Made by a program: the position numbers and the translations under genes
In this document: positions 31,865 through 57,031 of the stretch, one piece after another
How positions within the stretch are numbered: position 1 is the first letter of the stretch
Layout of the letters: every line of letters starts with the position of its first letter
Source: a virus
Virus record (IMG/VR): IMGVR_UViG_3300045988_109767
Coordinates: 1-64,000 of that record
Length of the DNA stretch: 64,000 nucleotides
Strand: one strand, 5' to 3'
The notes under the pieces: model-generated
What the model was told of the DNA's origin: nothing
Database searches by the model: none
What the model saw: the letters and a program-made list of their open reading frames with translations, nothing else

Positions 31865-31940
31865 TGTGTGAGATCGCCGGAATCGAACCGACCTACCGCA
31901 CCATGAATCCCATAAAGCAAATGCTCCGATCTTCGCAGAC
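31865..31940 (-). other. degenerate tRNA-like element B (T-arm GTCGG-TTCGATT-CCGGC plus acceptor-like GATCTCA-CA)
   Basis: Plus strand reads tgtgagatcgccggaatcgaaccgacc; partial 5' acceptor pairing (GAAGATC) only; too short for a D arm. Confidence 0.35.
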
Positions 31941-32441: not shown

Positions 32442-32515
32442 GTTGTTTATGTTTTAATTGTTATACATTCCGATTACTACTAATCTATAGAATATAGTTT
32501 TCAACTCTCAACCTA

Positions 32516-32694
32516 TTGAATTTTGTAGAATAAACTCACATTATGCTGTTTTAAAGCACTGTAAGTCTTAATTTTGTAGGAAAACCCTACATAATGCTGT
32601 TTTAAAACGCTGATCTGTTGAATTTTGTTGGCAGGAACTACATAACGCTGTTTTAAAACGCTGTAAGTCTTAATTTTGTGGGAAGACAGTGCCC
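32516..32694. repeat. tandem direct repeats, about 3.5 units of 50-52 bp (TTGAATTTTGTAG...ATGCTGTTTTAAAGCACTGTAAGTC)
   Basis: Units at 32516-32567, 32568-32617, 32618-32669 and a partial unit 32670-32694, each 80-90% identical to the others; intergenic. Confidence 0.85.
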
Positions 32695-33410
32695 TCCCTC
32701 TCCCCCTCTCCAACCCCGGCTAATCCTCCGACTTTCTGCATAGAAACTGCGCTCTCGGCCTCACTACAGGCATACGGAGAGCGCTACAAGCTTATACTAT
32801 GGCATGGGATATGGGGTGTTTAGAGATAATATCATTCCATAGAGAGAATAGAGAGCCTTCAGCCCACGCCCTACCGTCTGCTCCTCCTATCGAGATAGAT
32901 ATTCAAACCTATAATCAAAGCCAAAAACGAAAAGCAAAAGATCATTACAATATTATACTGATCTGCTCCGTACTCTAACATAGAACGGATACCAACTGAT
33001 AAAAAATATAGGTCAGCGACTAATAAAAACCACCACATAGAATAAAAAAAAATACAATAAGTATGTCCGAAAATACGGGTATTATAAAACCTAACTAATT
33101 GATAATCAAACATACCTCATTTTTAAGAAAAATACAATAAGCCTAATTTTCAATCCATAGAGACGAAAAAGGCGGCATCCTACACCATATTTTGGGTCAG
33201 AAAACCGCCTCCAGTTTCGTTTTAGACCAATTTTAACGACAGGATATAGACAAAATACCGGCGTTATATCCGAATACTCCTATTTTTGTTTCGTTTTAGA
33301 CCAATATAGCTCTCATCCGCCGTTCACTCTCAGAATATCCTACCCGTAAATAGAAAGAGTAGGATACAAAAATAGGACTGCTCCGATATTCGGAACAACC
33401 CTATTCCTGT

Positions 33411-33810: not shown

Positions 33811-33833
33811 GCTATTATATTATTTATAATTTA

Positions 33834-33897
33834 GAGGTTGCTCCGGAATCGAACCGGACACGCATTCCTATCCTATAGAGATTTTATGCTACAACCA
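33834..33897 (-). other. degenerate tRNA-like element C (perfect T-arm TCCGG-TTCGATT-CCGGA, six-pair acceptor stem, no D arm)
   Basis: Plus strand reads gaggttgctccggaatcgaaccggac...acaacca; acceptor TGGTTGT/GCAACCT pairs over six positions; only 64 nt. Confidence 0.35.
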
Positions 33898-34392
33898 ACA
33901 GCCCGTAATTAGTACGTAGTTCTTGCGTACAGGCCCGTACTATGTTGTTATTATATTTTCCGTCTGCTACACAACTTAGCCACAAATAAAGGCGATTGTG
34001 TCCTTGCGCTTTGATACGGCACGTCCCTACATGGTAGGCTACATGCTTGTACCCTGTAATTTAATCTACAGCCTTGTTCTATTTTTTCGTGTAAGCAAGT
34101 AAGACACGTTTCGATCTGGAGATAAACCTCGTACAACGGCATGTTTTCCAAACTGTAATCACATACCTAACATGAATCACGCCTATTCGGGTGATTCATG
34201 CAGTAATACCAGCCCTTTAATTGCCAACGGCAAGGGCAACGGTATATCTATCTCCAATATGTAAAATAACTCTCTTTTTGTCAGCTTCAGTCTAAAGCAT
34301 ACGCGGGACGTGCACCCACTGACACTGGCGTACAGGCGCGTTAAGGTACGCGACAAACCTTTGGAGAGCTTAACGGCGCTCTCCGTGCCTTG

Positions 34393-34932
34393 TTACTGCT
34401 GGTTGCTTTCATGTGCGAGATATTCACTTACACACTTTGCCACAGTGCGAATAGAATAATATTTGATCTTAACAGCCACATAAGTAGCTTTATACTCGTC
34501 GTTTTCTTTTATCAACCATTTAGTGCTTTTTTTGGTCTCCAATGATTCGGCAGTAGTAAAACCAAATGATTTATATTCGCTACCGTAAACCACATTCTCA
34601 GCGCACCAATCAGCCGTTTTAGCCTCAACGCCTTTCTCTTTGTCTGCATTGGTATCCTTATACACTTTAGAGTATAAAGCAAATTTAACAAATGTATCGT
34701 CAACTTTCGGTAACATTTGGCTACACACAGCTACCAGGCGTTTTTTATCCTTGGCGAGGGCTGCAACCTTTACGGCGTATTCTGCCGGTATTTCTAAGGC
34801 CTTGCAAATAGACTTAAGATCAGCTCCATTAGCAAATAGAGCGTTGTACAGTTTAACAGCACCTACCAAATTTGCAGCATTTTCTTTGATAACGGCATTC
34901 TGTAGTTTGTTTACATTTTTTTTCGTAATCAT
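34393..34932 (-). CDS. hypothetical Lys/Ala-rich protein, isolated inside the repeat-rich region (start taken as MITKKNVNKL)
   Basis: Track ORF 34393..34995; the internal Met at 34932 is preferred because the first 21 codons are hydrophobic junk. Confidence 0.45.
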   Translation of the reverse strand: MITKKNVNKLQNAVIKENAANLVGAVKLYNALFANGADLKSICKALEIPAEYAVKVAALAKDKKRLVAVCSQMLPKVDDTFVKFALYSKVYKDTNADKEKGVEAKTADWCAENVVYGSEYKSFGFTTAESLETKKSTKWLIKENDEYKATYVAVKIKYYSIRTVAKCVSEYLAHESNQQ

Positions 34933-35325
34933 ATCCCAATATATTTTAATTGTTAAACAAATGATATTCAAATTAATGACCCACAACGCAGGCAATTACA
35001 GATACATATATAGCCAGCCCAACGGGTACACTATATAGGTTCACTATGTTAACTCGTAATCTCTCTCGATCACGACGCAAATATACGACATTTATCAATA
35101 TTACATATATATATGCTATATTTTTTTTGTTAACTTGTATTAATTTCGATTCTATTATCTGATTATCAGTAAGTTACAAAAAAAACACAAGAGCAGTATT
35201 ACACGCGTACATTAATATGTAGGATATATTCTTATTTAAGTGGCTTATAATCAATAGGTTATAATAACACATTGATTATCAATAATTTAAATAAGTGATT
35301 GATAATCAGAGAGTTTGTGGGTTTG

Positions 35326-35382
35326 AGGTAAAACGCGTTTCCGGTTTTCCAGCGAAGGGGGTGTGGGGAAGAAAACGCGTTT
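35326..35382. promoter_or_regulatory. pair of palindromic sites AAAACGCGTTTC (43 bp apart) in a GC-rich island with G-runs
   Basis: taaaacgcgtttccgg at 35327 and gaaaacgcgtttcggg at 35370; AAACGCGTTT is its own reverse complement; GGGGGTGTGGGG and GGGGGCGGGAGG nearby. Confidence 0.4.
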
Positions 35383-35419
35383 CGGGGGCGGGAGGTTCGT
35401 GATAGGTACCCCCTCTCTC

Positions 35420-35524
35420 TCATCACATAAATATTTTTTCTCATATCTCTCATCACATAAACCTCTTTCTCATATCTCTCCTATCACATAAACATTTCAC
35501 CATTCCTCTCCCTCATCACATAAA
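35420..35524. repeat. four direct copies of CTCT-n-(T)CATCACATAAA with about 31-bp periodicity
   Basis: tcatcacataaa at 35420, 35450 and 35513, and tatcacataaa at 35482; each copy is preceded by a CTCT tract. Confidence 0.8.
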
Positions 35525-35574
35525 AATATGGGGAACCTATCCAAAGTTCCCCATACTTATTTTACGACCAGTAA

Positions 35575-35967
35575 TTATTTACTTTCCCATATTAGTTTAT
35601 CTTCGGCTATTCCGATCTTTACTTCCTCGCACTTTCTTCCTATCCATCCATTGAGATACGAGAATGGTTCTGAGTTTTTTACTTCTTCTCCTAAGAAATT
35701 AAAAGCTTCAGTAGAAACATGGGATGCTTCATGGCAAACTGTTTCAAAATCAATTATTTTCTTATTAATAAACCATATCAAAAATCCCGTATTAGGATTT
35801 AATTTACACCCTCCGTATGGAACGGATACAGTTACAGCCTTGCTATTATCTACGTAACTAAAATCGTTATTGAAACATTCTACCATGCCAGATACGTCTT
35901 TTCCTACGTATATCCACAGATTAAAAGGATAGACTTCCGGATAGAACTGATATAATTCACGCTTCAT
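35575..35967 (-). CDS. small protein with HExxH zinc-metallopeptidase-like motif
   Basis: VCHEASHVSTEAFNFLGEE: HExxH plus a downstream Glu. Confidence 0.4.
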   Translation of the reverse strand: MKRELYQFYPEVYPFNLWIYVGKDVSGMVECFNNDFSYVDNSKAVTVSVPYGGCKLNPNTGFLIWFINKKIIDFETVCHEASHVSTEAFNFLGEEVKNSEPFSYLNGWIGRKCEEVKIGIAEDKLIWESK

Positions 35968-36944: not shown

Positions 36945-37505
36945 TTATTTACCAACAAACGTGATAACGTCCATATAGTCAATACCGGCATTCTCAGAAC
37001 ATACCTTATCCGAATCAGAGAACTGCCCTGGCAGACCACTGGCGTCCCCGACCATCAACGAACATCCCTTAAGTTGACTAAAGTTCATACCACGCATTAC
37101 CGTGTCTTTACACTTCATAAGAATATCATCAATCATGCCCGTGTTAGGCTTCCTCATCGGATTTTGTTCGTCATTTGAATAACACAACCTTTTTTCATAT
37201 AGGACGCCTCTTATGCCACGTTTTACCGCCAGATCATGTACGGACCTCAGTACGTATTCTATCTTAGCTTCAATATCAGCTCCAGAAACAAACCCAGCTT
37301 CTACTCCTCCTTGATTGCTTACGATAGCAAACACCTTAACACCGTTCTCCTGCATGAGGTCAAGAGCCTTATTCACCACATCCATCTTAATCCTCATATC
37401 TGTCAAGTCTGTAGCGAACGTATTCCCAGAAGCGGTTTCTATAAGCGTCCCGTCAAAATCGAATAGCAGTATTCTTTTGTTTTTAATATCCAAATCGTTC
37501 ATCAT
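36945..37505 (-). CDS. HAD-superfamily phosphatase (subfamily III; GmhB or polynucleotide 3'-phosphatase-like)
   Basis: Motif I LLFDFDGTLI; motif III RKPNTGM; motif IV MVGDASG. Confidence 0.65.
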   Translation of the reverse strand: MMNDLDIKNKRILLFDFDGTLIETASGNTFATDLTDMRIKMDVVNKALDLMQENGVKVFAIVSNQGGVEAGFVSGADIEAKIEYVLRSVHDLAVKRGIRGVLYEKRLCYSNDEQNPMRKPNTGMIDDILMKCKDTVMRGMNFSQLKGCSLMVGDASGLPGQFSDSDKVCSENAGIDYMDVITFVGK

Positions 37506-37912
37506 TTTTCACTCCTACTCTTTTTTATTACCCTAAGCTGAAGACGGAATAGATTACTGTCTTCTTTTATAATATCATACACAGCATAAGAATTTTCTCC
37601 TATATCCCATCCAAGATAATCGAGCAGGTCTTTTAAGTAAACTCTCTTGTATTTTACACCAAGGTTATTTACCTTAAACGATCTCTCGTCTTCAACATCA
37701 GAAGCAGCCAGATAAAAGACCGTATTTTCAACTCCTTCAAATATCTTCCCTTCTTCTAAGCCGATAACAACCGCATCCGTTACCCCCATCCAATTCAAAT
37801 TATCGACAGAGATAGTCATTATCTTACTTTTGCTGATTGACAACTTCCGGATCTTGCTTTCTTTAGTTTTAGATCCTAAAAAATCATTACTGTTAAAAAA
37901 ATCTACTTTCAT
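37502..37912 (-). CDS. hypothetical protein
   Basis: 136-aa ORF. Confidence 0.45.
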   Translation of the reverse strand: MKVDFFNSNDFLGSKTKESKIRKLSISKSKIMTISVDNLNWMGVTDAVVIGLEEGKIFEGVENTVFYLAASDVEDERSFKVNNLGVKYKRVYLKDLLDYLGWDIGENSYAVYDIIKEDSNLFRLQLRVIKKSRSEK

Positions 37913-38058
37913 GGTTATAATGTTTTATATTGATGTTGCAAATATACATAATAAATAATCAACAAAGAAATAAATAGGATTAAAACATGATAAAAAAACC
38001 CATAGCACTACGTATTTAATAAAAATAAATCAATGACGTAAGATAATAAAAATAATCA

Positions 38059-52841: not shown

Positions 52842-53157
52842 CGATGATGTTTCTTACGTAGATCGGAAACTTCTTGTGCTAAGGGATCAGATAGATAAGG
52901 CTGAACGTTATCTATCTGAAAATCCTTGGGATAAAATAGAAGATTCCGATAAGAGGGAGAAAGAATTTAGGTTTCAAAAGAGCTTGTCTGATAGCTTAAT
53001 GCAATGGACTGAATCTTATATTAAGATGTGTGGAATAATGGATGTCTATAATCAGCTTGAGGCTGCCAAAAACAAGAAAAGCCTAAAAGGAGGACAAACA
53101 GTATCAGGTATTCAGTCTTTTGTTAAGAATGAAGCTAAGAACAAGCTCGATAAATAG
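52819..53157 (+). CDS. hypothetical protein immediately upstream of terL (the small terminase subunit usually sits here; no motif support)
   Basis: 112-aa ORF; synteny argument only. Confidence 0.4.
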   Translation: MKARKPTNDDVSYVDRKLLVLRDQIDKAERYLSENPWDKIEDSDKREKEFRFQKSLSDSLMQWTESYIKMCGIMDVYNQLEAAKNKKSLKGGQTVSGIQSFVKNEAKNKLDK

Positions 53158-53164
53158 TTTTGTC

Positions 53165-56100
53165 ATGAATATTAACAGTAAAGAACTTTATATAAATATG
53201 GGTAACGATATTCCGTTATGGAATGACCTTTATTCTTATGAAGAGCAAGACAATGATGTCAAGCAATTCTGGGAGAATGAGGCTATGAAACTCCTTAACG
53301 GTGTTACCATAAATGGGGTATTTATCCATCCTTGGCTATACTGGCATATCAATTTCTGGAAGATGATGATTGACGTAGGAGATGATCGTATTCCTGGAAA
53401 TTCGCAGCTTCGTGATAATGAATGGATGTTTGCCGAATTTCTAAAGCAGGCTGAAGAAGAGAATAAAGGAATATTCATGTTCGGGTGCCGTCGTTTTGGA
53501 AAAGCCCTTCTTGATTCTGAGATACTTTATCTTGAGGACCGGGAAAAGATGATAGGAAATATCGTTGTAGGGGATAAGATATATGACGATAAAGGGAATT
53601 TGGTAGAGGTCGTAGGTGTTTATCCCCAAGGAAAAGTAACTACCTACAGAGTCGTATTCGAAGACGGTCGTAACGTTATTTGCTGCGGTAATCATCAATG
53701 GCGCGTCAATCATGGAGGAAAATGGCATGTTAGGAGTCTTAGATCCATAGCCGGATTAGATTATAAGAGTATGTCTATTCCAGTAGGTGAGGCCCTGAAC
53801 TACCCTACGGCAAAGCTGCCGGTTCCTCCGTCAGCCTACGCCTCGATGCTGGCGGCTTATCTCGGTGGCTATGGTGGGGATATGTTTTTTGATAAATACG
53901 TTTGTAAGAAGTTTTTAAGATCGTCCATAGATCAAAAGAAAGATTTTATAGAAAACTTCATTCGTTCTTTCAGAAACGTAGTAACCGGAGAAGAAGAGCT
54001 TATGTTGTCTCATATTGATATGGATGTCATAAATTTTGTACAACGTATGTTTTGGGCTTCAGGTTGGTATGCTAAATTGGAGGGGAACAAACTTATACTA
54101 TCAAGGAATCGTAAGGAATTAAAAATAAGATCCATATCGATATACGGTAAGGAGCATGCCACTTGTATAACCGTTGATAATGATTCTCATTTATTTTTGA
54201 CCACCAATTACATCGTTACTCATAATACGGCCATAATGAGTTCTCTTCTGGCCCGTAATGCTACAATGACGTACAATTTGACGCATAATGTTATTGGAGC
54301 AAGTAAAGAAGACCTTGCCAATATGGGAGAGTATCTTGAGTTTGGACTTGATAATCTTCCTCCTTATCTTACTATAAACAGGACTGGTAACGACTGGACT
54401 AAAGAAGTTGTTTTAGGTACAAGAAACATCAATAATCAACGTGATGTTCATGCCAGAATAAGAATCACCAACGTTGATGATGGAAAGACACGAGGCTCAT
54501 TGAAGACCGCAGGCGGAACTCCATATACGTCTATATATGATGAGGTAGGTAAATTCCCGGTGCTTGGGGCATGGCTTGCCGGTAGGCCGGCTCATATGAT
54601 GCATGGTAGAATGAGGGGCGTTTGTTTGATGGCTGGATGTTGTTGTGCTGGTACAATAGTGTACAAATCAAACGGAGAACCGTGTAGGATAGAGGATTTA
54701 AAACAAGAAGATGGAATAATAGGATTCGATAATATATCATCAAAAGCTGTAAGTCAAGACATAACATGGATGAAACCCCCTGCCGAGAAAGAGTGTTATA
54801 GAATAACAACAAAAAGAGGAAGGGTACTTGAATGTAGTGGGGATCATCCCATATTGACTGTTGTAAAGAAAAGGAAGGGTAAATTTAGGTACTTTGGATC
54901 TGATTTTAGAAGGGCTGATTCTCTTAGAGTTGGACGTAAAATATGTGTATCAGATGGTGTGGATATATGGGGAGATAAAAAAATGTTTGATCCATACCTT
55001 GTTGGCATTCTAATAGGGGATGGGAGCTATGGTTTTGATAAGACTCCTATTGTGTCTACCAGTGATGATGAGGTGTATGATTATATACGATCTAAATATG
55101 AGTGTTGTATAGAGAAACAGTATAAGACTAAGGACGGAAAAGATTATAGGGAAATAAGAATAAAAGGTATATGCCATGAGTTAAGGGAACTTGGTATATA
55201 TGGTCAGACTAAAAAAAACAAAACACTTCCTTTAAATATACATTCATATAGAAGAGAGGATGTTATTATGATGATTAGGGGGTATTTTGATGCTGATGCT
55301 ACTTTTTATTCTAATAACAATAATAGGGATCATCGTATAAGTTTAGGATCTTGTAATAGGCATCTTCTTGAAGAAGTAAAGGATGTTCTTTTTAAATTTG
55401 GAATACATAGTACTATTTCTTATAGCCCATCTAAAAATCCAGCAGATAGATCAATTATTCTTGATTCATATGTATGTAATATATTGGATAAATTATCCAT
55501 GCTTAAATATTGTGATATAATTGGAACAGATATAGGATATAGAAGAGAGAAACTTGATTCTATAAGGAAATTCGGTTCTAATTTTAGCACATTTGGATCT
55601 TTTAGGTCAAAATATTTAGATGGAGTGATAATAGAAAGGATAGATAAGATAGAGTATATAGGAATTAAGCCTGTTTACAACCTCACTGCATCAGATACTC
55701 ACACTTATATAGCAAATGGTATTATAACTCATAACACTGGCGGTAATGTAGAAAAGTCTCAAGATGCACAGAAAATCATGAACTCTCCGGACGAATATGG
55801 ATTTATTATAATGAATTATGATATTCTAAATAAGAGAGTTATTAAACCAACATGGCGTATATGTAAATCTGGATGCTTTGTTCCGGCCCAGATGTCTCAT
55901 GCGTATGAAAAGAAAGAAACGACTCTTGATAAGTATCTTGGAGTAGAGAATGCTCCCGGTCTTAAGAAGATAAAAATAAAAGTTTCAGACTTTGATAAAA
56001 ATACTGGAATAATAAAATCACGTCTTGACGAACTTGTCAAAAAGGATAGGGCTTTATACGTCCAGGAACGAATGGCATTCCCTTTGTCTATAGATGATTG

Positions 56101-57031
56101 TTTCCTTAATACGAACGTAAATAGGTTCCCTGTAGAAGATGCGTTGAAGCACAAAAGCCGTCTTCTTGAAGAAGGTAGGCCTGGTAAAACAGTGGATATT
56201 TATCAGATAGACGGCATGAAAATGGGGTATAATTTTAGTGATAAGCAGCTTGCTGATTATCCGTTTCAAGGTGGTAACATAGATTCTCCTGTTGTTATAT
56301 ATGAGGATCCACCAGAAGAAGGAGGTGTTTTTGATTACACTTATGTTTCATCGCTTGACCCCTATAAATCTGACAAGGCTGATACTGATTCTGTTGGTTC
56401 GTTTTATGTACTTAAAAGATATGTAAAAATCAACGATCCATTTGCTTATTGCATAGTAGCATCATACGCATCACGTCCTCCATCTTCCGATGATTTTTGT
56501 AGGAATTGTGAAATACTTCAAGAAGCGTATGGGGCCAAGTGTCTTATGGAGAATGCCGACCGAATGTATGAATTTTATCTTACGAGACGAAATAAGCAGC
56601 TTATGTTGCTGGAAGATGGCGAACGTCTTGCCGGTAAGATTATTCGTGCTGGCGCCCGTCAGAACAACAAGCTCGGTTTGGCTCCTACGGTTCCCAATCA
56701 GCGTATGCTTTTCAATACCGTTATTCAATATTGTTGGGAGGATGTTGTTGTTGGGTATGATGATGATGGTAATGAAATAACACAGAAAGGTATTTACCGT
56801 ATCCCTGATATAGAACTTCTTGATGAGATCATAGCCTTCGGCCCTGGGGCCAACACCGACCGTATCATAGCCTTCGGCCACGCTCTTCTTCTGGCTAAGT
56901 ATTATGATGATATGGGTTACATGCCTGAAAGTACGACTCAGAAGGAGAATCAAAAGAAGAGAGAGCGCAAGAAGATAGAACAGGTCAAAGGATTTACGGT
57001 AAGAAGACATAACCCTTATAAAATGAGGTGA
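53165..57031 (+). CDS. terL: terminase large subunit precursor with two in-frame inteins (exteins 53165-53503, 54227-54637, 55736-57031; about 681 aa after splicing)
   Basis: Walker A GCRRFGK|T is restored across intein 1; Walker B SIYDEVG; the C-terminal nuclease-domain region is acidic; lies directly upstream of the portal gene; ATG at 53165 preferred over 53120. Confidence 0.8.
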   Translation: MNINSKELYINMGNDIPLWNDLYSYEEQDNDVKQFWENEAMKLLNGVTINGVFIHPWLYWHINFWKMMIDVGDDRIPGNSQLRDNEWMFAEFLKQAEEENKGIFMFGCRRFGKALLDSEILYLEDREKMIGNIVVGDKIYDDKGNLVEVVGVYPQGKVTTYRVVFEDGRNVICCGNHQWRVNHGGKWHVRSLRSIAGLDYKSMSIPVGEALNYPTAKLPVPPSAYASMLAAYLGGYGGDMFFDKYVCKKFLRSSIDQKKDFIENFIRSFRNVVTGEEELMLSHIDMDVINFVQRMFWASGWYAKLEGNKLILSRNRKELKIRSISIYGKEHATCITVDNDSHLFLTTNYIVTHNTAIMSSLLARNATMTYNLTHNVIGASKEDLANMGEYLEFGLDNLPPYLTINRTGNDWTKEVVLGTRNINNQRDVHARIRITNVDDGKTRGSLKTAGGTPYTSIYDEVGKFPVLGAWLAGRPAHMMHGRMRGVCLMAGCCCAGTIVYKSNGEPCRIEDLKQEDGIIGFDNISSKAVSQDITWMKPPAEKECYRITTKRGRVLECSGDHPILTVVKKRKGKFRYFGSDFRRADSLRVGRKICVSDGVDIWGDKKMFDPYLVGILIGDGSYGFDKTPIVSTSDDEVYDYIRSKYECCIEKQYKTKDGKDYREIRIKGICHELRELGIYGQTKKNKTLPLNIHSYRREDVIMMIRGYFDADATFYSNNNNRDHRISLGSCNRHLLEEVKDVLFKFGIHSTISYSPSKNPADRSIILDSYVCNILDKLSMLKYCDIIGTDIGYRREKLDSIRKFGSNFSTFGSFRSKYLDGVIIERIDKIEYIGIKPVYNLTASDTHTYIANGIITHNTGGNVEKSQDAQKIMNSPDEYGFIIMNYDILNKRVIKPTWRICKSGCFVPAQMSHAYEKKETTLDKYLGVENAPGLKKIKIKVSDFDKNTGIIKSRLDELVKKDRALYVQERMAFPLSIDDCFLNTNVNRFPVEDALKHKSRLLEEGRPGKTVDIYQIDGMKMGYNFSDKQLADYPFQGGNIDSPVVIYEDPPEEGGVFDYTYVSSLDPYKSDKADTDSVGSFYVLKRYVKINDPFAYCIVASYASRPPSSDDFCRNCEILQEAYGAKCLMENADRMYEFYLTRRNKQLMLLEDGERLAGKIIRAGARQNNKLGLAPTVPNQRMLFNTVIQYCWEDVVVGYDDDGNEITQKGIYRIPDIELLDEIIAFGPGANTDRIIAFGHALLLAKYYDDMGYMPESTTQKENQKKRERKKIEQVKGFTVRRHNPYKMR
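53504..54226 (+). mobile_element. intein 1 (241 aa) in the TerL P-loop, starting with Ala instead of Cys/Ser (class-2-like), with a degenerate endonuclease region
   Basis: Block A ALLDSEILYLED; block B CGNHQW; blocks F/G ATCITVDNDSHLFLTTNYIVTHN followed by the +1 residue Thr; LAAYLGGYGGD is a LAGLIDADG remnant. Confidence 0.6.
54638..55735 (+). mobile_element. intein 2 (366 aa) with a double-motif LAGLIDADG homing endonuclease
   Basis: Block A CCCAGTIVYKSNGEPCRIEDL; block B SGDHPILT; LAGLIDADG motifs YLVGILIGDGSY and IRGYFDADATF; blocks F/G PVYNLTASDTHTYIANGIITHN followed by the +1 residue Thr. Confidence 0.75.

Follow-up and report, generated by a model that had tools for sequence, protein, structure and literature searches.

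Why should four kinds of repeats be crowded into one small gap between genes of a phage, and what might they serve? The region that raises this question lies in a stretch of 64,000 nucleotides (hereafter the window), positions 1 to 64,000 of the IMG/VR virus record IMGVR_UViG_3300045988_109767, where it occupies a 640-bp gap between two minus-strand genes. A preliminary description saw in it a stack of unrelated operator-like elements. Each of the four repeat classes can be found within a few bases of the positions given there; instead of being unrelated, they are consecutive, ordered parts of one conserved module. This module is one conserved cis-acting DNA element, which occurs once per genome at the boundary of two same-strand transcription units. 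Taken singly, its parts (direct repeats, dyads, an AT-rich region and a promoter) belong to known kinds. We tentatively take it for the replication origin of the phage, a reading that we place first with less than even confidence and with a direct terminal repeat as its close rival.

The phage lineage is very common in human-gut metagenomes, and the module is the only obvious candidate for the phage's cis-acting replication or genome-end signals, now with exact coordinates. In the literature searched, there is no description of a layout with two junctions, two minisatellites and G-tract blocks in this gut-phage lineage.

Organization and conservation of the module

When the minus strand is followed, the stop codon of a gene for 130 amino acids (aa) comes first, and then a terminator, a minisatellite (array 1), a GC-rich block, AT-rich dyads, A8 and T8 runs and a -7 promoter box. 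The box is followed by a leader of about 145 nt and by a 179-aa gene. The features are:

35575..35967, minus strand: upstream gene, 130 aa, unknown function
35531..35553, minus strand: predicted intrinsic terminator of the upstream gene block, hairpin GGGGAAC-N9-GTTCCCC with the U-run tail AUAUUUUUAU
35414..35527, minus strand: array 1, a purine-rich minisatellite with four units in the window
35398..35420, minus strand: junction site 1, GAGAGAGGGGG directly followed by TACCTATCAC, with the break between 35409 and 35408
35325..35413, no strand assigned: GC-rich block with twin AAACGCGTTT palindromes and plus-strand G-tracts
35158..35310, no strand assigned: AT-rich dyad region, four TGATWATCA-type 9-bp palindromes in nested inverted repeats centred near 35263
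35076..35088, minus strand: predicted -7 promoter box of the Bacteroidota primary sigma factor, GTCGTATATTTGC, containing TAnnTTTG as TATATTTG at 35085-35078
34393..34932, minus strand: downstream gene, 179 aa, basic, the first gene after the module, unknown function

These elements are more clustered than expected by chance, and more than 100 independent assemblies contain them. Close relatives were collected by means of the upstream gene, which gave 51 IMG/VR loci, and by means of the twin palindrome, which gave more than 100. Outside the relatives, the twin-palindrome search of IMG/VR met with nothing but unrelated matches in high-GC phages, due to chance or iteron-like in kind. The window region is 88% identical to phage csAssE-Sib (OR575929, 151,256 bp, human gut), which served as the complete 151-kb relative in all genome-wide motif scans. 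Distant homologues of the 179-aa protein, with 20-44% identity, have the upstream order unchanged: a purine-rich short-repeat array, a G-run directly followed by (T)ACC/ACCACCT, C-runs with CGCGTTTT-type boxes and CACCCCC, AT-rich DNA that carries TTGAT...ATCAA dyads and GTACGCG(T), and finally GTAyATTTGC. The layout of two sites and two arrays described below is kept down to 27% protein identity and, judged by this depth of conservation, shows an old, selected feature. It also makes the binding sites accessible to comparison between lineages.

That a structured non-coding RNA or a small protein gene explains the region is very improbable, the most so of all the readings considered here. The GC-rich block is highly conserved, and a 65-aa open reading frame (ORF) is found at 35259..35456 on the minus strand, the counterpart of which, across the GC-rich block of OR575929, is annotated 'hypothetical protein'. 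Against this, Rfam gives no match at E <=1 around the locus and only four tRNAs at the gathering threshold in the whole window, the RNA fold reaches a z of only about -1.9 on either strand, mostly from the terminator, and the region sits past the terminator and ahead of the promoter. RNAalifold places 0 consensus pairs in the GC-rich block across seven lineages, and for this reason the conserved entity is the DNA sequence and not an RNA structure. The 65-aa ORF was itself considered as a gene and rejected: it starts in the variable array and crosses C-runs with 1-3-nt indels, which are not multiples of three, and it has no homologues in Pfam or PHROGs. Because the elements are conserved without an explanation in RNA structure or coding, binding of several proteins to the DNA is plausible, and the module likely holds several kinds of protein-binding sites. 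To this extent the earlier suggestion of at least two regulators may stand, at the level of DNA; an ordinary operator role for them is unlikely.

Two junctions and two arrays

At junction site 1, the purine/G-run end of array 1 meets a C-rich block. Downstream of the 179-aa gene, on the same strand, there is an array-2 element that looks like a partner of the array-1 module:

32519..32717, minus strand: partner element, made of a G-rich block, junction site 2 and array 2
32717-32692, minus strand: partner G-rich block GGGGTTGGAGAGGGGGAGAGGGAGGG
Between the GGGGTTGGAGAGGGGGAGAGGGAGGG block and array 2, minus strand: junction site 2, GAGAGGGAGGG directly followed by CACTGTCTTCC
32679-32519, minus strand: array 2, 51-bp units in 3.2 copies

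A long purine/G-run with such a junction occurs at these two places only, both in the window and in the full relative. The sole canonical C-strand quadruplex-type motif of the window, CCCTCCCTCTCCCCCTCTCCAACCCC, is joined to array 2. Short-repeat arrays lie just outside both junctions (array 1 at 35414-35527, array 2 at 32519-32679), and pairs of this kind are also present in five distant loci (L177, L178, L181, L183 and L186).

A second tandem array is found 2.1-2.8 kb past the gene start in L177, L178, L179, L181, L183 and L186, and the second array of distant lineages is preceded by a G-rich block that ends in a matching junction, for example GGGAGGGG directly followed by ACACC. In six lineages, the junction of a G-run with (T)AC(A/C)CC has its second copy 2455-3268 bp downstream in direct orientation. 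Junction pairs taken from within one genome score 10.0 on average versus 7.6 for pairs taken between genomes, and the observed sum was reached by 4 of 720 permutations. It is suggestive, with six lineages only, that the two junctions of one genome co-vary.

In relatives, array 2 resolves into 1-4 copies; it is the second place where assemblies break and contig ends cluster. Many Logan contigs with the 179-aa gene are 2.5-2.85 kb long and correspond to the 2.75-kb piece between the arrays. The two minisatellites break short-read assemblies, which is relevant when the completeness or circularity of a genome is judged.

The minisatellite of array 1

The repeats that make up array 1 in the window are:

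35420, 35450 and 35513: three exact copies of the direct repeat TCATCACATAAA
35481-35492: the variant CTATCACATAAA, which differs from TCATCACATAAA in its first two bases
35422, 35452, 35483 and 35515: the array-1 core, TTTATGTGATG on the minus strand (ATCACATAAA on the plus strand), at spacings of 30, 31 and 32

The preliminary description reported four phased copies about 31 bp apart, or roughly three helical turns, and proposed cooperative binding on one face of the DNA. Four direct repeats near this spacing do exist, three of them exact and one a variant. The phasing is not conserved. The relatives have 97 distinct arrays with 433 units (162 of them distinct), and the unit lengths are continuous over 27-33 bp, with 59, 38, 53, 85, 61, 41 and 33 units at the seven successive lengths and outliers of 11 to 108 bp, which argues against a regular number of helical turns and against same-face binding. 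The copy number is 3-13 in resolved arrays and at least 15 in one truncated contig. When units are compared, most of the information is held by the first 11 bases, TTTATGTGATG. The array units of the distant locus L177, CTTTTATGnGGGA, have the TTTATG core in common with the array of the window.

About 17 of the 51 IMG/VR contigs with the upstream gene end inside array 1, at varied unit phases, and the two ends of several contigs of about 150 kb fall on opposite sides of it. Because these long contigs end on both sides, array 1 is best taken as an assembly break in an otherwise circular assembly and not as a mapped end. A physical genome end at array 1 was considered and set aside, since the contigs end at varied repeat phases, no contig has two cassettes and the nearest record is without a terminal repeat. 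An array of the CRISPR type (clustered regularly interspaced short palindromic repeats) was also rejected: the segments between the cores are repeats too, of variable length, and the array consists of whole-unit tandem repeats.

In two relatives (L051, 4001-4206; L052, 4001-4165), the minisatellite is fused to codon 27-35 of the 130-aa gene, and the remainder of this gene is deleted together with the terminator. These fusions indicate that array 1 is a site of rearrangement. The resolved arrays comprise 25 distinct alleles, which could act as a strain marker. The practical value of the module lies in the quality control of assemblies and in strain typing.

The GC-rich block and the AT-rich dyads

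The GC-rich block holds two palindromes and two G-tracts:

35330-35341 and 35372-35383: AAAACGCGTTTC, 42 bp from start to start
35331-35340 and 35373-35382: palindrome AAACGCGTTT
35357-35368, plus strand: G-tract GGGGGTGTGGGG (G5-TGT-G4)
35384-35395, plus strand: G-tract GGGGGCGGGAGG (G5-C-G3-A-GG)

The twin palindromes centred on ACGCGT are as described before, except that they are spaced by 42 and not 43 bp and that the palindromic part is the 10-mer AAACGCGTTT. The window has three ACGCGT hexamers, all of them within 35203-35380. The G-rich patch, reported earlier as unique and able to form a quadruplex, is the sole plus-strand site of the window with four tracts of three or more Gs and loops of up to 20 nt (35357-35392). 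It is not a canonical quadruplex motif: in G5-N3-G4-N17-G5-N1-G3 the central loop of 17 nt exceeds the canonical limit of 7 nt, and the motif is called only under the relaxed limit of 20. Nor is the patch the most GC-rich part of the window, since its GC fraction is 0.59 and other 90-bp stretches reach 0.67.

In 29 distinct close relatives, the GC-rich block is 95-100% conserved, against a background of about 90-93%, and its interior, of 51 to 55 nt, varies mainly in C-run length. The skeleton of ACCACCT, C-runs, CGCGTTTT and CACCCCC is retained in the distant lineages. Runs of C or G persist in most of them, with the number and strand of the runs varying.

Next to this block, the AT-rich region carries the following sites:

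35160-35168 and 35273-35281: exact dyad TGATTATCA
35300-35308: exact dyad TGATAATCA, the complement of TGATTATCA
35245-35253: degenerate fourth dyad TTATAATCA
35203-35208: the third ACGCGT, inside the AT-rich dyad region

The inverted GATTATC pair noticed earlier is thus present, and the third site, CTGATTATCAG, exists at 35159-35169 and not at 35163. The dyads are held in a 65-bp imperfect palindrome with arms at 35231-35262 and 35264-35295, and around it lie the arms of an outer inverted repeat at 35158-35176 and 35292-35310. When folded as single-stranded DNA, the dyad region has a z of -3.0. The exact dyad sites number 5 in the 64 kb versus 1.5 expected, a count reached by 3 of 100 shuffles. 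In the 151-kb relative, TGATWATCA has 10 sites, of which 4 are in the non-coding zone of the module and the rest are scattered. Dyads of the form TTGAT...ATCAA together with GTACGCG(T) are found at the equivalent place in seven distant loci (L176, L177, L178, L182, L183, L184 and L186).

A further copy of TGATAATCA lies at 33100-33108 of the window. The non-coding zone 33040-33310, between small genes and array 2, has two copies of AAAAATACAATAAG at a distance of about 80 bp and two of TTTCGTTTTAGACCAAT at about 70 bp.

The boundary between two transcription units

The module separates two blocks that are read in the same direction. Upstream, the transcription of replication and nucleotide-metabolism genes ends at a predicted hairpin terminator, which lies 22 nt past the stop of the gene 35575..35967. 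The hairpin has an energy of -22.5 kcal/mol and a z of -4.0, and 0 of 200 shuffles fold as well. It was missed by a consensus scan because of its 9-nt loop. Relatives with a diverged upstream gene (L032, L037 and L040) have a different hairpin at the equivalent place.

On the other side, the predicted -7 box would drive the 179-aa gene and the early-type genes downstream of it. The consensus of the Bacteroidota primary sigma factor consists of TAnnTTTG at -7 and TTTG at -33 (PMC7366714). The box in the window resembles such promoters in being a conserved -7 box at a plausible distance from a start codon, and differs from them in that no clear -33 TTTG element is evident upstream. The host is presumably a member of the Bacteroidota, for which a sigma-70 promoter scan is uninformative. 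Ten bases of the box are invariant in 29 close relatives. The form GTAyATTTGC occurs in eight distant loci (L176-L178, L181-L184 and L186), and a weaker TAtCTTTG box is found in L174 and L185.

The exact 10-mer of the promoter box, GTATATTTGC, is found again on the minus strand at 37938-37947, 26 nt upstream of the gene 37502..37912. This second site, which has no repeat elements alongside, is probably another host-type promoter. An exact 12-mer, TAACAATTAAAA, occurs on the minus strand at 34944-34955 and 32452-32463, 9-11 nt upstream of start codons, and thus precedes both genes that come after array 1 and array 2. Allowing for one mismatch at most, it has 7 matches versus 1.7 expected. The related AACAATTAAA stands before the homologous start codons of distant lineages (L181, L182 and L186). 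These motifs may be leader or translation-initiation signals.

A possible replication origin

By combining the layout of the module with its conservation, it is possible to outline how it might work as an origin. The repeated cores and the short palindromes would recruit one or two DNA-binding proteins in several copies. These could be encoded by the phage, the adjacent 179-aa protein being one possibility, or could be a nucleoid protein of the host. The AT-rich dyad region, just behind the early promoter, would be the place where the DNA is melted or extruded, and the melting might be aided by the negative supercoiling that early transcription leaves behind. The partner array downstream would then act as a second binding cluster, as in iteron replicons whose clusters flank the initiator gene.

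The reasons for favouring an origin are the repeats with a conserved core, the adjoining AT-rich dyads, the second cluster, the uniqueness of the elements and a step in skew, as well as the order kept in distant lineages and the co-varying second junction 2.5-3.3 kb away. At least three clustered direct repeats have the conserved core TTTATGTGATG. In the complete relative, this core, AAACGCGTTT and both G-blocks are found at this locus only. The stretch 35100-35320 has the character of an unwinding region, being AT-rich with nested inverted repeats and A8/T8 runs, and the conserved promoter reads away from it. Across the cassette, within the same minus-strand gene block of the relative, the GC skew steps from about -0.33 to about -0.18 and the AT skew from about -0.15 to about -0.05, and the direction of this step fits that expected at an origin. 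The module itself is located within the replication and early gene block.

Several points weigh against an origin. The repeats are without a helical phase, and their copy number and unit length exceed the variability of classical iterons. Examined by eye only, the region has no convincing DnaA-box-like 9-mers, the matches being poor; matches to the consensus of integration host factor, likewise considered only by eye, are expected in AT-rich DNA. The genes of OR575929 annotated as 'DNA replication factor', primase and DnaB-like are about 24 kb from the module. Differing expression classes could be an alternative cause of the skew step. Beside the module there is no recognisable initiator. The model of the 179-aa protein has no match among solved or predicted viral folds, and Rep, lambda-O and winged-helix folds are not matched either. 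As this protein diverges to 20-44% identity, the TGATTATCAA-type dyad and the TTTATG core change little, which argues against the protein as their specific binder.

The comparison with known iteron origins (phage lambda ori, the P1 and F replicons, and the P4 ori with crr) is accordingly mixed. Common to them and the module are clustered direct repeats with a conserved core, an adjoining AT-rich region and palindrome, one locus per genome, another repeat cluster a few kb off beyond a small gene, and a promoter that possibly activates the origin. In contrast to those origins, the units of the module are 27-33 bp long with no fixed phase, their copy number varies five-fold between strains, and the two arrays differ in unit sequence. 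The adjacent protein does not have a fold like that of winged-helix Rep proteins or lambda O, inspection by eye showed no DnaA boxes, and the GC-rich, G-tract-rich junction block has no counterpart in those origins.

Alternative explanations

The same layout might be explained by the ends of the packaged genome, a possible account that we consider somewhat unlikely. The two junctions would then be sites of cutting or recognition at the two ends of a direct terminal repeat of about 2.7 kb, as at a concatemer junction; the arrays would lie just outside the repeat, and a host-type promoter inside its left end would start transcription of the DNA that enters first. Co-varying junctions in direct orientation, 2455-3268 bp apart in six lineages, would suit such a repeat, as would the tandem arrays directly outside both sites, the terminator just before array 1, and the conserved predicted promoter, which reads inward about 320 bp inside junction 1. 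The cassette is also unusually poor in coding sequence, and the composition of the genome is discontinuous there. In phage T7, the terminal repeat is flanked by the short-repeat arrays SRL and SRR, which are followed by strong early promoters for the host RNA polymerase. The T7 ends and the module share a bounded segment with arrays of short, variably spaced repeats beyond each of its ends, GC-rich elements beside the arrays, an AT-rich stretch, and inward host-type promoters at the transcriptional start of the genome. They differ in that the segment bounded here is about 2.7 kb long and carries genes, as against 160 bp in T7, in that the phages are unrelated and without sequence similarity, and in that the terminal repeat is here a putative one. 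Contig ends fall inside the arrays, at varied phases, instead of at the junctions, which speaks against a terminal repeat. The cassette never occurs twice in one contig and the nearest complete record is without a terminal repeat, although both are also expected from collapsed assemblies. Circle-closing assemblies that are broken only at the arrays are neutral, as short-read assemblers collapse terminal repeats. Precedents exist among the crAss-like gut phages, a group without similarity to the phage of the window: short direct terminal repeats have been reported for one (PMC8042965), and coverage or read ends gave evidence of terminal repeats in another (PMC10983915).

If the module served transcription alone, which we regard as unlikely, the TGATWATCA and ACGCGT palindromes would be operators for one or two dimeric regulators of the early promoter at 35085-35078, and the minisatellite would be a by-product or an insulator. 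The palindromes are short, strongly clustered and shaped like sites for dimeric binders, they lie upstream of the conserved promoter box, with similar dyads before the homologous promoter in distant lineages, and the terminator would insulate this promoter from upstream. Their distances are less suitable: 75-83 bp separate the -7 box from the nearest dyad upstream of it and 160-225 bp from the remaining ones, none overlaps the promoter, whereas the GC-rich block and the array, 240-440 bp upstream of the only conserved promoter box, are too far for classical operators. No regulator gene of the helix-turn-helix type adjoins the module, other promoters, such as the one with an identical -7 box at 37947-37938, have none of the motifs, and the second junction and array 2.7 kb away are left unexplained. 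The earlier idea of a regulon finds no support in the genome-wide scan of the relative, in which the core, AAACGCGTTT and the G-blocks keep to this single locus; the motifs do recur, as that idea would have it, in relatives, but not elsewhere in the genome. Quite improbable is plasmid-type maintenance, in which the repeats of about 30 bp would act in segregation or much like a centromere, with a distinct dyad-symmetry element serving replication during episomal persistence. The origin oriP of Epstein-Barr virus consists of a family of 30-bp repeats and a dyad-symmetry element, both of which bind one protein through the same 18-bp site. The module likewise has a variable number of repeats of about 30 bp and, about 150-250 bp away, a 65-bp dyad-symmetry element with four palindromic sites, both of them non-coding and unique in the genome. 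It departs from oriP in that the array core and the dyad site have only the TGAT half-site in common, instead of a shared 18-bp site, in that the two elements are 0.15-0.25 kb and not 1 kb apart, and in that this is a bacterial virus for which no EBNA1-like protein is known. Near the module, no gene for a partition ATPase or a ParB-like protein could be identified. One crAss-like gut phage has been suggested to live as a phage-plasmid (PMC10983915). It is, finally, unlikely, though less so than plasmid-type maintenance, that the module and its partner form an undescribed genome landmark, in which co-evolving junctions, minisatellites and quadruplex-capable G/C tracts would bracket a mostly non-coding early cassette. 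Nicking or priming might then take place at the polypurine/G-tract junction by a mechanism not known from model phages, or else the whole could be an oriP-like element for both replication and maintenance that supports long-term carriage in gut Bacteroidota.

Genome context and the 179-aa protein

The genes of the window from 1 to 50,131 are on the minus strand and comprise small unknown genes and genes for replication and nucleotide metabolism; from about 50.4 kb onwards, the plus strand carries the terminase, portal and capsid genes. The capsid protein has its nearest isolates in the Cellulophaga phages phi4:1 and phi17:2, at 34% identity. Phage phi4:1 is classified in the genus Lightbulbvirus, and its record is circular with an arbitrary start. 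The nearest record, csAssE-Sib, is named in no paper found by the literature search, and despite its crAss-derived name the phage of the window shows no similarity to the crAss-like group.

The protein clusters for the 179-aa gene hold thousands of member sequences; in the phage collection, the gene has no homologues beyond two gut records. A single-sequence model of the protein has a predicted local distance difference test score (pLDDT) of 45, and a model from the family alignment A2, which was built from the protein, has a pLDDT of 89.

After the 179-aa gene there is a gap of about 580 nt without a convincing ORF (33811-34392, minus strand). It is 90-100% conserved in close relatives and ends in the tRNA-like T-arm GTCCGGTTCGATTCCGGAG at 33858-33841, and all distant lineages (L177-L186) have a syntenic gap of about 600-700 nt after the homologous gene. 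Rfam and ARAGORN return nothing in 33811-34392, which is a candidate for a large non-coding RNA. A second tRNA-like T-arm/acceptor motif, GGTCGGTTCGATTCCGGCGATCTC, lies at 31870-31893 (minus strand) in a conserved non-coding stretch and is not called by ARAGORN or Rfam. The related phage encodes a Ro60-like protein and an enzyme like the CCA-adding or poly(A) polymerases, and these genes make Y-RNA-like or tRNA-like RNAs worth considering.

In unrelated high-GC phages (L074, ~6644-6760; L146, ~4638-4760; L164, ~1922-2040; and L140), what the twin-palindrome search matched are clusters of GAAACGC(GTTTC) repeats at the end of a replication-associated gene; these look like the iteron origins of another phage group.

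The ORF of the terminase large subunit in the window (53120-57031) is 1303 aa long, compared with 937 aa in csAssE-Sib. Its terminase matches are split between residues 123-192 and 867-1288, with helicase-like and endonuclease-like matches between the two parts, and primase-like and DnaC-like matches overlap the N-terminal segment at residues 113-211. This arrangement suggests an intein or an inserted homing element.

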